Of a DNA stretch of 64,000 bases, positions 2,627 through 43,528 are shown one piece after another (within the stretch, counting starts at the first letter, position 1; each line of letters opens with the position of its first letter). This DNA is from a virus. Lineage: Duplodnaviria; Caudoviricetes. The DNA lies in the IMG/VR virus record IMGVR_UViG_3300017716_001697, positions 1-64,000 of that record; one strand, 5' to 3'. A program made the translations under genes and the position numbers. The notes under the pieces were generated by a model. That model had not been told where the DNA came from, did no database searches, and saw nothing but the letters and a program-made list of their open reading frames with translations.

Positions 2627-3135
2627 TTGACACTACATATAGTTGATGTTACATTAGCTGCTTGATACATTGTTTTATGGTGATGCAGATAGACTTTAAA
2701 GGCAACCCCCTGAATACATTGAAGGTTGACACCTATCTAAAACGATGTTACATTAGTAGCTTGATACAAATTATGTAGGACACTATAACAAAACATTAGC
2801 TACCGCTAATTTGCAACAGTATATTATGGTGATGCACTAAATAGACACGGTGCGTGAGACGATAAAGAAGACGGTTGACACCTATCTAACGCACTGTTAT
2901 AATGAGATTATAGATACAGAGTTTTTATGCGGAATGTATGCTACCGTGTAGAAGTAAATGAAAAGAGAGCATATCGATCATGTCTACTCTGTATCTTACT
3001 AGTTTTGGTGTGTTTGACAACGTTTTTTAATGTTGTTACAATACAAGATGATAAATAAAAGTGTAGACAAGAATATATCTGTTTCTTAGAAGATTACTTG
3101 AATAACTTGACAGATTACTATACTACTGTTAAACT
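2627..3135 (+). promoter_or_regulatory. Array of five sigma70-type promoters
   Basis: TTGACA-N17-(TACATT/TACATT/TATAAT/TACAAT/TAAACT) at 2627, 2726, 2875, 3014, 3107. Confidence 0.8.
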
Positions 3136-7434: not shown

Positions 7435-7730
7435 TTGGCTATAAACTTTTTAGACAACGTAAAGACGGTACATTAGGTCCACTGTTTATTAATCGCAAAC
7501 AACGCCTGACTATCGGTGAAACATATATTGCAGAAGAACATCCTACAAAGGGTTTTGCATTTAGGCCAGGGTGGCATATATGTTCAGAAATGAATGCTCC
7601 ACATCTTAGTAAGAAAAATCGTGTGTGGGCAAAGGTTAGTTTTTCAAAGTATACAAGTCATAAACGTCCTGATTCACAAGGCGGACTTTGGTATACTGCT
7701 GATAAGATGAAAGTCTTAGAAGTGTATTAA
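7431..7730 (+). CDS. Hypothetical phage protein
   Basis: GTG start coupled to upstream stop (GTGA). Confidence 0.65.
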   Translation: MIGYKLFRQRKDGTLGPLFINRKQRLTIGETYIAEEHPTKGFAFRPGWHICSEMNAPHLSKKNRVWAKVSFSKYTSHKRPDSQGGLWYTADKMKVLEVY

Positions 7731-10278: not shown

Positions 10279-10621
10279 TTCAACATTCGAGCTAACGCTG
10301 GCAACAGAGGAAGTTCGGGACAAGCGCCAAGGGCGTGTGGGAGAGTGGTTATTTGATGGGGCATAGTGTCGGCCGGCTCAAATCTAATACGGAGTTGTTA
10401 GAAGCCAAGCAGAGATTTATCATCAAGCTAGATCCGCAAGGATGACAAAAGGTTCCTGAGACGGGTTCAACTCCCGGATGCTCCACCAAATAACTACTTG
10501 TTACACCACCGTGATACAGCTTGCAACACAAACAGAACCTGGGAACTCTTGGCTTATAGGTTCGGGTTGTGGCAAAGATTAATGTTAGCATAGAACAGAA
10601 TCCCGGCTACGGAATGTTGAA
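10279..10621 (+). ncRNA. rnpB: RNase P RNA (type-A catalytic domain)
   Basis: P1, P2 (GCTAAC/GTTAGC), P3, CR-I GAGGAAGTTCGGG, P5 CAAGC/GCTTG, P6 GCCAAG/CTTGGC, P15-16 with GGT, CR-IV AGATTAAT, CR-V ACAGAATCCCGGCTA. Confidence 0.85.
10358..10488 (+). ncRNA. Ala-acceptor tRNA/tmRNA-like domain nested in the RNase P RNA
   Basis: GGGGCAT/ATGCTCC with G3-U70, ACCA, GAC-GGGTTCAACTCCC T arm. Confidence 0.7.
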
Positions 10622-11582: not shown

Positions 11583-11801
11583 ATGGCAAGAATTACTTCG
11601 CAGAAAGCGGCAGAAGCCGTTGGTAACAGATTTGATCTAGTGTTGATTGCATCTATTCGTGCAAGGGAATTGAAACGTAACTATGCGCCTAAAATTGTTT
11701 CTACAAACGGACCAATGGTTACGGCTATTAGAGAGATTGAGCAAGGCCTCATTGGGAGAGATTATCTAAAGAAGGTCGGCATTAGATACGAAAAAGAATA
11801 A
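11583..11801 (+). CDS. rpoZ: RNA polymerase omega subunit homologue
   Basis: MARIT...GNRFDLVLIASIRAREL...VTAIREIEQG. Confidence 0.9.
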   Translation: MARITSQKAAEAVGNRFDLVLIASIRARELKRNYAPKIVSTNGPMVTAIREIEQGLIGRDYLKKVGIRYEKE

Positions 11802-13472: not shown

Positions 13473-13648
13473 GGGGTGTAATGGTGAGTATAGCGGGTTC
13501 GATTCCCGTGTGGTCCACCATAAATTGTGTTGTCCTAGCGGTAATAGCTAGTTAAATGATGAAAGTCGGAAGCAATGCAATTTATAATGGGCCAGGGTTG
13601 GACCGTTCCTAGGACGCTCGACGGGTTCGATTCCCGCCCACTCCACCA
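13473..13648 (+). ncRNA. Pair of cross-pairing Ala-acceptor half-tRNAs
   Basis: Two T arm plus ACCA units whose acceptor strands pair crosswise; hairpin spacer. Confidence 0.6.
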
Positions 13649-15683: not shown

Positions 15684-15717
15684 AAGCTCACTATCGCAAG
15701 GTAGTGGGCTTTTTTTA
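15684..15717 (+). terminator. Rho-independent terminator ending the tRNA array
   Basis: AAGCTCACTATC-GCAA-GGTAGTGGGCTT plus T-run. Confidence 0.8.
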
Positions 15718-15781
15718 TGGCCAATCAAAAATGCATACCTATAGAATTTCTGTGATAAATACGTATATTATAAGAGTACAA

Positions 15782-16558
15782 ATGAAATTACATAAACATA
15801 TTCTACTAGGATTAATTCCTGCACATATATTATTTGCTATACTAGCATATTCTTTACCTATAAATTTTGCTACAATTATTGTAGCAATTTTACTATGGAT
15901 TGTAATAGGCGGAATTGGACTCGATATTGGGCTTCATCGAATCTTATCACATAAACAATTTATAGTTAGTAAGCCACTTGAGCGATTAATTTCATTCTTG
16001 GGTGTACTATCTTTAAATGGCTCACCTATATCGTGGCGAGCATTACATGTAGGATATCACCATCCTTACTCGGACACGCCTAAAGATTTTCACAGTCCTG
16101 TAAACGGCGGATTCTTTAATGCATATGTATTATACATAAACCAGTTAGACAAAATGGTGTTAAGGGGGTGCAAAGAATTACTAAATGACAAGTATCAGGT
16201 ATTCTTCCATGAATATTATTTTACTATTATTTGGTTAATTGTAGCACTCGCCGGATTAATTTCTTTGCCATTGTGCCTGGCATTATTGACTGCAATGATT
16301 ATATCGTTTCATCAGACTGCGATTGTTAATGCTATGTGTCATTATGAACAGTTTGGTTATGCGACATTTGAAACAAAGGATAGATCACGTAATATAAAAT
16401 GGTTGGGATATATTACATTTGGACTGGCATTACATAATAATCATCACATGTATCCGGCCGCTGCGAATTATGCGATGTCGCCCGGTGAATACGATGTGGG
16501 ATACAGACTAGCTAAATTTATAGGGCTTACTGAGAATAAAGATGGTAAATATACTTAA
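15782..16558 (+). CDS. Membrane fatty-acid (acyl-CoA delta-9-like) desaturase
   Basis: His boxes HRILSH, HVGYHH, HNNHH; TM helices. Confidence 0.88.
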   Translation: MKLHKHILLGLIPAHILFAILAYSLPINFATIIVAILLWIVIGGIGLDIGLHRILSHKQFIVSKPLERLISFLGVLSLNGSPISWRALHVGYHHPYSDTPKDFHSPVNGGFFNAYVLYINQLDKMVLRGCKELLNDKYQVFFHEYYFTIIWLIVALAGLISLPLCLALLTAMIISFHQTAIVNAMCHYEQFGYATFETKDRSRNIKWLGYITFGLALHNNHHMYPAAANYAMSPGEYDVGYRLAKFIGLTENKDGKYT

Positions 16559-17383: not shown

Positions 17384-19231
17384 ATGCGTAAAAAGAATGT
17401 ATATTTGCTGTCGATTCCGTCAGCCACACCGCTCTACTTGCCACTATTTTGGGCCAGTGCAAAGACATACTACGAGACTCACGGCAAATACCCAGACGAG
17501 TATAATTGGGTATTACCATATGCTGAGTTCATGGTTGGCTTGGATGCAATTAAGAAAGCAATAACGAACAATCCACCTGATATATTTGGGATCAGTCTGT
17601 ACGTCTGGAATTATACTATGAGCATGGAATTATGCAGTTGGGTTAAAGAGACTTGGCCTCATTGCATAGTTATAGTAGGTGGCCCTCATCAATACGTTAC
17701 ATTTCAGTCAGATTTCTTTCTTAGGTGCACTTTTGTAGATGCATGTTCCCCAGATACGGCGTACGGTGAATTAGTAATGACAGATTTATTAGACAATATA
17801 CAGGACGACGGTACAGTAAATTGGGGAAATGTTGAACAAATTCTTTATCCGTCAAAGCAACGTGGTATGATATTAACGGGGACCAAGAAAACTCGTGCAA
17901 GTGAATTTGACTGGTCCTTTAGCGCATATTCAGCACAATTGGCTAGTATGCATAGATACGTTGATATTAAAAAAATATGCAGGCCTAATGCCTCGTTGGG
18001 CATCAGGATAGAAACCACCCGTGGTTGCCCATATCAGTGCACATATTGCGATTGGGGCGGTACGCTAGGTTCTAAAATGGCTAAAAAAACAGATGATGCA
18101 ATTAATGGTGATCTTAGTGTGTTATCTCTTGCTGAATTTGATATCTCCATCATTCATTTCTGTGATAGTAATACAGGCATCTTTGGTAAGAGAGATGTCG
18201 ACACATTTAGACTAATGGTGGAAAAGACTAACTGCCTTGGTGATAATCGCCCCGTAGTAAATATCTCAGGATGGGCAAAATCAACTGTGCATCTTAAATA
18301 CATCAAAGAAATATTAGAGGTGACAGCATCAACGGGATTAATTGATGCACTAAAAATCTCGATACAGACATTCGATTCGTCATCGTTGGTTAATGTAAAG
18401 AGGACTGACATAGCAGCAGATGAATATTTTATGTTAGGTGATTATGCCAGATCTCTAGGATGCACCATAATAGCTGAAATGATAATGGGGTTTCCTGGAC
18501 TAACACTAGACAAGTTCTATAAAGAATTTGATCAACCGTATGAGCGCGATATTGAAGTTAGGTTCTACGAATGGCAATTGCTTCCACAATCCGAAGCATA
18601 TTCGCCGGACTATCGAAAACAATTTAAACTTGGTACAGCAGTGAATAATAACAGGACACCGGAATCTATATTCAATATAGCCAACGAAACAGTGGTAGAA
18701 TCTTATTCATATTCGAGAAATGATTATGCAGAGATGATGACTGTATATTCATTATATATTCTTATCACCATAGGGGAAATATATTCTAAATCCATACAAC
18801 AATTGCTTGACAGAAACGGCTGGCGCATAAGCGATTTCTTAAAAGAATTTCACCATACATGCTATCCGCTTCTAGAGGCAGTTAACGGTAAGAATAATGC
18901 AGCATTCAGGGAGCGTAAGATAGCCCATACCACAGTAAAGGACTCGACAAGCTCTTCACTGAGCACAATTTACTCGCTTCTGTTATTAGAAGATTTTTGG
19001 GAAGAAACAGAAACGCAGGCACCTATAATCCGAGCATGGTTGTTAGCTGAAGGCGCAGAGTCGAGTACCGTTGATTCCGAGTATCTAGAATTAACCACTC
19101 TTACAGAAGATGTTATCGTTGCACGCCGCGCGCGATTTATTGATGCTAATAAAATTCGAACCAAGAAGAAGATTGACAAATCTTTATTCACTAACAGCCT
19201 GGCCTCGACGCACGGGCTAAATGCTAGATGA
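17384..19231 (+). CDS. B12-binding-type radical SAM protein
   Basis: PDIFGISLYVWN N-terminal domain; ETTRGCPYQCTYCDW. Confidence 0.85.
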   Translation: MRKKNVYLLSIPSATPLYLPLFWASAKTYYETHGKYPDEYNWVLPYAEFMVGLDAIKKAITNNPPDIFGISLYVWNYTMSMELCSWVKETWPHCIVIVGGPHQYVTFQSDFFLRCTFVDACSPDTAYGELVMTDLLDNIQDDGTVNWGNVEQILYPSKQRGMILTGTKKTRASEFDWSFSAYSAQLASMHRYVDIKKICRPNASLGIRIETTRGCPYQCTYCDWGGTLGSKMAKKTDDAINGDLSVLSLAEFDISIIHFCDSNTGIFGKRDVDTFRLMVEKTNCLGDNRPVVNISGWAKSTVHLKYIKEILEVTASTGLIDALKISIQTFDSSSLVNVKRTDIAADEYFMLGDYARSLGCTIIAEMIMGFPGLTLDKFYKEFDQPYERDIEVRFYEWQLLPQSEAYSPDYRKQFKLGTAVNNNRTPESIFNIANETVVESYSYSRNDYAEMMTVYSLYILITIGEIYSKSIQQLLDRNGWRISDFLKEFHHTCYPLLEAVNGKNNAAFRERKIAHTTVKDSTSSSLSTIYSLLLLEDFWEETETQAPIIRAWLLAEGAESSTVDSEYLELTTLTEDVIVARRARFIDANKIRTKKKIDKSLFTNSLASTHGLNAR

Positions 19232-30560: not shown

Positions 30561-30848
30561 ACTGTTGTAATCCCTTCGAAGCGAAGGCAGGCAAGACGCG
30601 GGTTCGAATCCCGCCAGGTCCACCAAAATCATATTCGAAAAATAAAATCCATAACACGTTATGGTGTGAGTATGATTCTGATGGGCCTGCTCCGGAAATC
30701 GATTGCGTGAGATAGTAGAGACGGCAACACGAGAGGCGATGGACGTAATCCAAGCAAAACTAGTAAATGCAAACGCAGATACATTCGCTCTTGTAGCCTA
30801 AGAAACTCAAAGCTGAGGTAGGACTTACCTTATAACCAAAACAACCAA
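30561..30848 (+). ncRNA. ssrA: Circularly permuted two-piece tmRNA
   Basis: Acceptor piece ends GACGCGGGTTCGAATCCCGCCAGGTCCACCA (30625); hairpin spacer; coding piece starts GGGCCTG (30683); tag ANADTFALVA* at 30769-30801. Confidence 0.92.
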
Positions 30849-30918: not shown

Positions 30919-31311
30919 ATGATACTAAAATGGTCATCGGCAATGTTAATAGGTAATGAAATACTTGACAATCAGCACAAGCTAATATTTGAGTTGGTTA
31001 ATATCGTTGCAGCCGAAGAAAATGAAGCGCATTTCAAGACAAATTTCTTAGAGTTGTTTGAGGGTATAAGCATTCATTTTCATTATGAAGAAGAGTTGAT
31101 GAAAGAAATTGACTACCCCGATTACAGAAAACATATAGAAGATCATTTTATATTGACAAATACCTTGAATGTTATACGTACAGAAATTGACAATAACATC
31201 GTCGATATTGAGCACTTTCGTGAATTTGTTAAGACCTGGGCATATGGGCATATACCGGGTGATGATGCGGACTTAGTTAACTATCTACAAAAACACAGAT
31301 CTTTAACTTAA
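30919..31311 (+). CDS. Bacteriohemerythrin
   Basis: DNQH...HFHYEE...H...H...HI..DD iron ligands. Confidence 0.88.
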   Translation: MILKWSSAMLIGNEILDNQHKLIFELVNIVAAEENEAHFKTNFLELFEGISIHFHYEEELMKEIDYPDYRKHIEDHFILTNTLNVIRTEIDNNIVDIEHFREFVKTWAYGHIPGDDADLVNYLQKHRSLT

Positions 31312-33704: not shown

Positions 33705-33780
33705 GCGCCTTTAGCTCAGTTGGTAGAGCAGCGGATTCTAAATCTGTAGGTCAGGGGTTCGAGTCCCCTATCGCGCACCA
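33705..33780 (+). tRNA. Amber-suppressor tRNA (CTA)
   Basis: GCGGA-TTCTAAA-TCTGT anticodon arm; canonical D and T arms; CCA; two acceptor mismatches. Confidence 0.8.
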
Positions 33781-43126: not shown

Positions 43127-43528
43127 ATGGTAAACAGCAAACAGGTTCTTGTGATGAAGAAATTCCCTAAGGCACTAAACATGCCTGTTGGGAAGTATGT
43201 ATCCCAGGGTGCCCACGCGAGCTTGGGTGCTGTCCTTAAAATGGGTAAATTGGACGAGTACGGGGATAATCTAATTATTCCATTGTACAACGTCTTTGTA
43301 CGCGATTGGTTGTTAGGTAGTTTTACAAAGGCTACTTTGTATGTGGAAACTGATGAAGAATTAACTGCATTATACCATGCTGCAAACAGCGCAGGATTAC
43401 CTACTGCACTTATTACTGATTCGGGCCGTACCATTTTTGCCGGTGTGCCGACTATGACTGCGGTAGGCATTGGCCCAGGCAGCGTAGAAGAGATTGATAA
43501 GATTACTGGTCATCTTAAATTGTTTTAA
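43127..43528 (+). CDS. Peptidyl-tRNA hydrolase Pth2
   Basis: KQVLV...GKYVSQGAHAS...ITDSGRT...TAVGIGP. Confidence 0.88.
   Translation: MVNSKQVLVMKKFPKALNMPVGKYVSQGAHASLGAVLKMGKLDEYGDNLIIPLYNVFVRDWLLGSFTKATLYVETDEELTALYHAANSAGLPTALITDSGRTIFAGVPTMTAVGIGPGSVEEIDKITGHLKLF

Follow-up and report, generated by a model that had tools for sequence, protein, structure and literature searches.

We found in the tRNA array of a jumbo phage a conserved and apparently undescribed RNA architecture, consisting of two tRNA 'top halves' of 48 and 60 nt with a hairpin spacer between them, whose predicted structure is well supported. Across 18 distinct sequences with 11 acceptor haplotypes, our comparison shows the predicted transcript to be under selection for a crosswise two-headed fold, for alanine identity in both heads and for a disposable spacer. 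We interpret it as a phage non-coding RNA gene made of tandem tRNA-Ala/tmRNA-like top halves with exchanged strands, and propose, at a probability of roughly 0.4, that its charged product would serve as a decoy.

The element lies in the window, i.e., the whole stretch of 64,000 nucleotides that was analysed, which is the first 64 kb of a complete virus record of 364,576 bp with terminal repeats. The source virus is a T4-like jumbo phage of 364.6 kb that carries a T4-type major capsid gene, for which the Pseudomonas jumbo phages PA5oct and Paride provide the closest cultured relatives (77% identity). ARAGORN called 43 tRNAs within the window, Rfam models detected a permuted tmRNA of the betaproteobacterial type (score 120-145), and the double element sits inside the tRNA array, 3 bases past a 212-aa ORF that matched no Pfam family.

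Crosswise pairing of the two halves

The preliminary description had read this locus as two half-tRNAs that can only complete each other, and its coordinates for the units (13473-13520 and 13589-13648), each with a T arm and an ACCA end, are all as it gave them (Table 1). In the window copy, pairing in cis fails at acceptor positions 4-6 just as described, with a G.G mismatch, U.G and G.U in unit 1 and three mismatches in unit 2, whereas the crosswise pairing that it proposed was borne out, giving 6 bp with G3.U70 in each head and a mismatched 7-66 in both. By arithmetic, six specified Watson-Crick pairs would arise by chance in about 1 in 4000 cases.

Table 1. Coordinates and composition of the double element (window positions) and of single-headed units in other phages
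Feature	Position	Strand	Remarks
Piece A, 48 nt	13473-13520	+	Outer acceptor 5' strand, GG loop, linker, T arm 1, inner acceptor 3' strand, ACCA
Outer acceptor 5' strand	13473-13479	+	Partner 13638-13644: G1-C72, G2-C71, G3.U70, 3 covarying pairs; 7-66 unpaired
D-loop-like GG, piece A	13483-13484	+	Invariant in alignment A2
Linker strand GAG	13486-13488	+	Pairs with CUC 13617-13619; 3-bp helix joining both pieces
T arm 1, inner head	13493-13509	+	Regular 5-bp stem, loop UUCGAUU
Inner acceptor 3' strand, U70, A73, encoded CCA	13510-13520	+	Pairs with 13589-13595
Intervening spacer, 68 nt	13521-13588	+	13-bp closing helix 13521-13533/13572-13584, UAAU leader
Piece B, 60 nt	13589-13648	+	Inner acceptor 5' strand, GG loop, hairpin, linker strand, T arm 2, outer acceptor 3' strand, ACCA
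Inner acceptor 5' strand	13589-13595	+	Permuted arrangement as in two-piece tmRNA
D-loop-like GG, piece B	13600-13601	+	Conserved; presumed contact with T loop 1
Hairpin, piece B	13604-13616	+	3 covarying pairs closing UCCUAGG, or 5 bp closing CUA triloop
T arm 2, outer head	13620-13637	+	One-nucleotide stem bulge A13621
Outer acceptor 3' strand, U70, A73, encoded CCA	13638-13648	+	Pairs with 13473-13479
Single-headed mini-tRNAs, 45-48 nt	L263:286-333, L266:4855-4900, L267:1121-1165, L305:4366-4412		Acceptor, GG loop, T arm, CCA
Cis-paired G3.U70 unit, 57 nt	L212:7308-7364; also L208, L213, L221, L223		Linker with 12-base palindrome and CCUAGG
Unannotated G3.U70 unit, ~60 nt	L395 about 571-631 (Roseobacter phage DSS3P8, KT870145.1)		Cultured phage; D-arm-like hairpin, no proper anticodon arm

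Covariation of positions 4-6 in homologues, the check that had been suggested for this pairing, came out clearly on the crosswise side: over the 18 copies, 100 of 108 cells are Watson-Crick pairs crosswise versus 17 of 108 in cis. Two-sided, compensatory changes were present in all six acceptor columns, with G-C, U-A and C-G at outer position 4, UA or CG at position 5 and GC or AU at position 6, and, in the inner acceptor, CG or AU, CG or UA, and AU, CG, GC or UA at the same three positions. Upon counting coincident changes on both strands along a tree from the non-acceptor parts, which is rough as it was built on short sequences, we obtained 15 crosswise versus 6 in cis. The window's two genuine tandem tRNA-Ala genes, used as a control, pair better in cis. 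Most homologues came from unit 2 patterns demanding CCUAGG, the T-arm and TCCACCA, so that the lack of variation there partly reflects the search itself; these patterns left positions 4-6 free, and the inner head lay outside them.

RNAalifold recovered the crosswise fold without any hint. In a model-fitted alignment, which leans towards structure, 96.4% of cells pair and two-sided changes occur in 21 of 38 pairs, with a score that exceeds 500/500 shuffles and all slid controls. When the two pieces were cofolded with the T loops and CCA ends forced to be unpaired, both crosswise acceptor helices formed wholly or largely in most of 17 copies; without constraints, single-sequence folding failed to yield the complete two-headed structure for the window copy, L205 and L254. 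Three further candidates were rejected: an alternative 7/7 pairing of 13600-13606 with 13510-13516, present in the window copy and not conserved; a spacer segment complementary to the hairpin, which occurs in the window copy and is likewise not conserved; and a promoter-like site in the spacer (13559-13588), whose start would fall inside unit 2 and which is within chance.

The AlaRS identity set (G3.U70, A73, G2-C71, 3' CCA) is present in both heads, and G3.U70, A73 and G2-C71 are invariant in both heads of the 18 copies, the first CCA being UCA in L207. U(-1) precedes piece A in 17/17 aligned copies. Both heads retain their T loops and a D-loop-like GG, which in each piece follows the acceptor strand after a few bases, and of which the GG of piece A presumably contacts T loop 2 to form the elbow of the outer head, as in tRNA. 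T arm 1 is regular and T arm 2 carries, by our reading, a bulge in 17 of the 18 copies, and therefore the two heads are not equivalent.

Beyond what had been described, we found a covarying 3-bp linker helix, a covarying hairpin and single-headed relatives. The linker helix occurs as GAG/CUC, GUU/AAC, CUG/CAG and AAG/CUU; it is perfectly Watson-Crick in 15/17 copies and weak in L169, L215 and, by our own reading, L280. The earlier statement that the RNA has no anticodon needs some correction: a full anticodon arm is absent, but the conserved hairpin at 13604-13616 with its CUA-centred loop had been overlooked. This loop is UCCUAGG in 17/18 copies, with three covarying outer stem pairs, and a GACG tetraloop in L280; the CUA at 13609-13611 forms the centre of the 7 nt. 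C33, the short stem and the L280 tetraloop speak for a structural hairpin, and its loop is probably not a working anticodon. The loop also includes the palindrome CCUAGG, which could allow kissing between molecules. We found no tag-like frame in the mere 25 nt that separate the acceptor 5' strand from T arm 2, and neither head has the tmRNA-type D-loop (GG...UCGA) or the GAC connector seen in the tmRNA that the phage itself encodes.

Homologues, spacers and single-headed relatives

In public viral and metagenome data, we found 17 further distinct copies of the element, three of them (L165, L166, L169) without any RNA pattern through relatives of the upstream protein, 13 more with DNA patterns in viral and metagenome contigs, and the divergent L280 by covariance model. 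The 212-aa ORF had no relatives in IMG/VR, and its protein search gave Logan, ENA and JGI contigs. Requiring both units with a gap of 88-118 nt proved too strict a pattern and returned no matches, because the spacer length varies more widely. No double was present at 80 loci around the omega-subunit gene, and the cultured phages that were searched contained no full-length match to it. A GTDB scan with the strict unit-2 pattern gave three matches, none of them a double; as this pattern is strict, absence from cells is not thereby proven. The element was not called by ARAGORN or Rfam scans, the best Rfam scores being tmRNA-model fragments of 13-18 bits against a threshold of 47, and a literature search that covered subscription journals thinly returned no account of such an RNA or of the single-headed mini-tRNAs.

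Two complete genomes carry the element and three complete close relatives are without it. No conserved protein neighbour was found across the copies, and the proteins common only to the two complete carriers are mostly short, with none recognisable as a transferase by eye (they are unannotated). The genome was searched for SmpB, a CCA-adding enzyme and an RF-1-domain gene, and none was found; it does carry genes for tmRNA and Pth2. The RF-1-domain gene (186 aa) adjoins the tmRNA gene in G002, G003 and G004 and is absent from G000 and G038. Its absence from both complete carriers was considered as a rule and rejected, as L165 and L166 have the double together with this gene, which is split in two there. 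The genetic code is standard, and stop-codon recoding was ruled out since TAG terminates 44/256 long ORFs; a tRNA with a CUA anticodon is nonetheless encoded at window 33705-33780, and in 5/5 complete genomes examined. The window further contains genes for an RNA polymerase omega-like protein (11583-11801), a hemerythrin-domain protein (30919-31311) and Pth2 (43127-43528), as well as, by eye only, a histidine-box membrane protein resembling fatty-acid desaturases (15704-16558) and a large protein with a radical-SAM cysteine motif (17384-19231).

The spacer hairpin, noted earlier as resembling the intervening segment of the permuted tmRNA, proved real and longer than claimed, with a closing helix of 13 bp (z = -3.1) in the window copy. 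The tmRNA and its segment at 30626-30682 were also confirmed, and long spacers of the element share such a closing helix, which all of them retain. Spacer length varies between 4 and 141 nt, with L205 and L254 at the short end (4-5 nt); the sequences are largely unrelated, and nearly all long spacers finish with a short leader of the YRAU kind, as in permuted tmRNA spacers. From these features, the spacer presumably behaves as a removable intervening segment. One spacer contains a nested tRNA-like gene (L207:4149-4219; Rfam 42.8 bits) with a damaged anticodon loop, and a tRNA-like gene within a permuted tmRNA spacer has been reported once (PMC11915505). The L244 spacer holds two T-loop-like hairpins, with a GOLLD RNA 1.7 kb downstream (L244:2705-3130).

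Loop-free scans revealed single-headed, cis-paired G3.U70 units of 45-107 nt without a usable anticodon arm in other phages, and hence the lower half seems to have been dispensable repeatedly; given these relatives, two heads may not be essential. L263 corresponds to the outer head as one 48-nt chain and shares its linker sequence exactly with L246; it could be ancestral or could result from a deletion between the two T arms. The L212-type unit of 57 nt could homodimerise into a two-headed form, and G003 has a 107-nt single-headed unit whose acceptor is the same as the inner head of L205.

Several other acceptors were noted alongside. A third G3.U70 unit at window 10358-10488, with a cis acceptor, T arm, encoded CCA and a structured insert of ~95 nt, has no tRNA call and has a homologue in L263. 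T-arm-plus-CCA units with non-alanine acceptors that ARAGORN did not call are located at window 5427, 5799, 10149, 10875 and 20835, and the same kind occurs at genome 218621, 219396 and 265373; these are probably more unusual tRNA-like RNAs. Odd alanine-type acceptors without a normal anticodon arm were seen on the minus strand in the related phages G002 (near 276753), G003 (near 166110 and 173935) and L202 (5096-5154). Cis-paired G3.U70 units with UCCUAGG and no encoded CCA in two MAG contigs (L272 near 3086-3127, L270 near 7655-7696) are possibly chance pattern matches. Xanthomonas phage XacN1 (AP018399.1; L394 about 565-870) has a permuted tmRNA-like gene that is unannotated in its record.

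Among known systems, the permuted tmRNA (RF04321, RF01850) resembles the inner head in G3.U70, in the lack of a D stem and in its layout, where the T arm is followed by the acceptor 3' strand with CCA, a hairpin intervening segment and then the acceptor 5' strand; processing to an unligated two-piece product is presumably common to both. It differs in having a tag frame and mRNA-like domain as well as D-loop and connector motifs, all missing in the element, whereas the element has a second complete head with its own CCA; its scores of 17.2 and 17.7 bits fall far short of the gathering threshold of 47. The mitochondrial tmRNAs of jakobids and oomycetes (RF02544) likewise consist of a tRNA-like domain only, without a message, usually permuted and with alanine identity, but they are one-headed, and their covariance model had no match in the genome at E <= 1. 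In algae and archaea, tRNA genes that are permuted or split (PMC3978253) also have parts that are out of order or separate and that pair; their products, however, are joined by splicing and ligation into a single anticodon-bearing cloverleaf, whereas the element keeps two CCA ends, and its consensus fold of two acceptor stems and two T arms offers no cloverleaf to reassemble by ligation at bulge-helix-bulge junctions. Allo-tRNAs with G3.U70 (PMC5389517) share the odd architecture, the alanine identity and a partly phage-borne occurrence, but are single-chain cloverleaves with working anticodons, which the element is not. The single-headed mini-tRNAs, which have the same acceptor stem, GG loop, T arm and CCA and no usable anticodon arm, pair in cis with one head, in contrast to the crosswise pairing of the double. 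A canonical tRNA (RF00005) was rejected given the lack of ARAGORN and Rfam calls, the failure of cis pairing, C33 and the 3-bp stem.

Candidate processing, charging and function

By analogy with permuted tmRNA, which is processed by RNase P and 3' trimming (PMC11915505; PMC3978253), host RNase P would cut before 13473 and 13589 and trimming would halt at the encoded CCAs, leaving an unligated heterodimer of 48 + 60 nt. The bacterial alanine identity set comprises A73, G2-C71 and G3.U70 (PMC9976931), and AlaRS works independently of the anticodon (PMC3985003). As this set is present and AlaRS ignores the anticodon, host AlaRS is expected to charge both ends, and we consider the combination of such processing to a heterodimer with alanylation of both ends probable.

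For the function, we suggest that the RNA would act as a decoy or sponge, visible only to factors that recognise tRNA by its acceptor-T half, most likely host toxins that modify tRNA 3' ends in anti-phage defence, or else EF-Tu, and that it would thereby shield or rebalance the phage's own tRNA pool. We hold this role tentatively, at somewhat less than even odds, and favour it because the top-half features are conserved while a tag frame, the tmRNA D-loop and connector, a full anticodon arm and SmpB are missing. Toxins acting on the CCA end of tRNA are implicated in anti-phage immunity (bioRxiv 10.1101/2024.07.05.602228), and tRNA-targeting defence can be countered by phage tRNAs (PMC11455837). 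toxSAS toxins act on uncharged tRNA (PMC10565793), which would not in itself call for alanine identity in a decoy; this identity may have been retained as the simplest way of charging and stabilising an anticodon-free RNA. Nor would a decoy role alone account for the T-stem bulge or for how little the UCCUAGG loop varies, and the lack of a conserved protein neighbour and of the element itself in the three complete close relatives counts against it as well.

The two-headed form probably arose via duplication and strand swapping, which would later have become obligatory. The existence of single heads suggests that the two-headed state may be a neutral ratchet, in which after the duplication the spacer hairpin would favour the inner crosswise pair, cis pairing would then decay, and the pieces would grow mutually dependent. 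That the two alanylated heads instead cooperate, for example by bridging the A and P sites of the large ribosomal subunit or by gripping a dimeric host defence enzyme, possibly with multimerisation via CCUAGG kissing, and that the element is also a living tandem-duplicate stage, we regard as unlikely.

Equally doubtful is a tmRNA without message, of which a charged head would enter a stalled ribosome with host SmpB, or a bare 50S, and take over the nascent chain untagged, the peptide being freed by Pth; in a variant, the two heads might span the A and P sites. Each head is indeed laid out as the tRNA-like domain of tmRNA, the inner one is permuted as in the phage's own tmRNA, T arm 1 has a regular stem, genes for tmRNA and Pth2 are present in the genome, and jakobid mitochondrial tmRNAs without a tag region are known (PMC3985003). 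However, the D-loop and GAC connector typical of tmRNA are missing, the phage has no SmpB, the RF02544 model found nothing even at E = 1, and the second head is bulky with a bulged T arm 2. In another reading, the RNA would be a dedicated alanyl donor for a non-ribosomal transferase acting on DNA, lipid, cell wall or peptide, which the bulged T stem would keep away from EF-Tu. T-stem bulges are known in SelC* tRNAs (PMC5389517), a weakening of EF-Tu binding here being our own suggestion, and the phage protein Mom, a dimer, modifies DNA using Gly-tRNA (PMC13219725). As no enzyme is conserved next to the element and none of the mostly short, unannotated proteins common only to the two complete carriers was recognised as a transferase, we rate such a donor as improbable.

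The hairpin loop raises the question of an amber suppressor that inserts alanine, with UCCUAGG as a 7-nt anticodon loop reading UAG. CUA would occupy 34-36, with a pyrimidine at 32 and a purine at 37, the loop is fixed in 17/18 copies (including the three found without a loop pattern) while its stem covaries, and the CUA tRNA of the five complete genomes points in the same direction. Yet position 33 is C in place of U, the 3-bp stem without a D stem leaves the arm ~4 bp short of normal, and L280 has changed to a GACG tetraloop with the loop-closing U.G becoming C-G, which points to a paired stem; as the window already encodes a normal CUA tRNA and TAG is a real stop in this genome, suppression appears very unlikely. 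Fainter still is the prospect that the heads are punctuation for the RNase P release of a structured spacer that is itself the functional RNA: spacers are well folded and one contains the tRNA-like gene of 42.8 bits, but they are mutually unrelated and no more than 4-5 nt long in L205 and L254, and punctuation would not require G3.U70 in both heads. Finally, patchy presence among close relatives and the recombination-prone repeats of the T arms might suggest that tRNA or tmRNA genes duplicated or recombined and left a non-functional remnant, but this is hardly credible in view of the two-sided changes in 21/38 pairs, the pairing of 96% of cells and the crosswise pairing kept in 11 acceptor haplotypes.

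Implications for phage tRNA arrays

Two-piece tRNA-like RNAs known so far can be charged at a single end, whereas the RNA of this gene family appears to offer two, and the family escapes standard tRNA and Rfam scans altogether. According to one hypothesis, permuted tmRNA and tRNA genes originate from a tandem duplicate that then loses its outer ends (PMC3978253). The layout of the element matches that tandem-duplicate stage of permuted tmRNA origin, except that it is crosswise-paired and both outer ends are kept, and its single-headed counterparts in related phages make the duplication route testable. At ~108 nt, the RNA would be easy to make and assay. The element also points to a broader group of alanine acceptors without an anticodon that has been overlooked in the tRNA arrays of phages and has one member in a cultured phage; this bears on why large phages carry so many tRNA-like genes.
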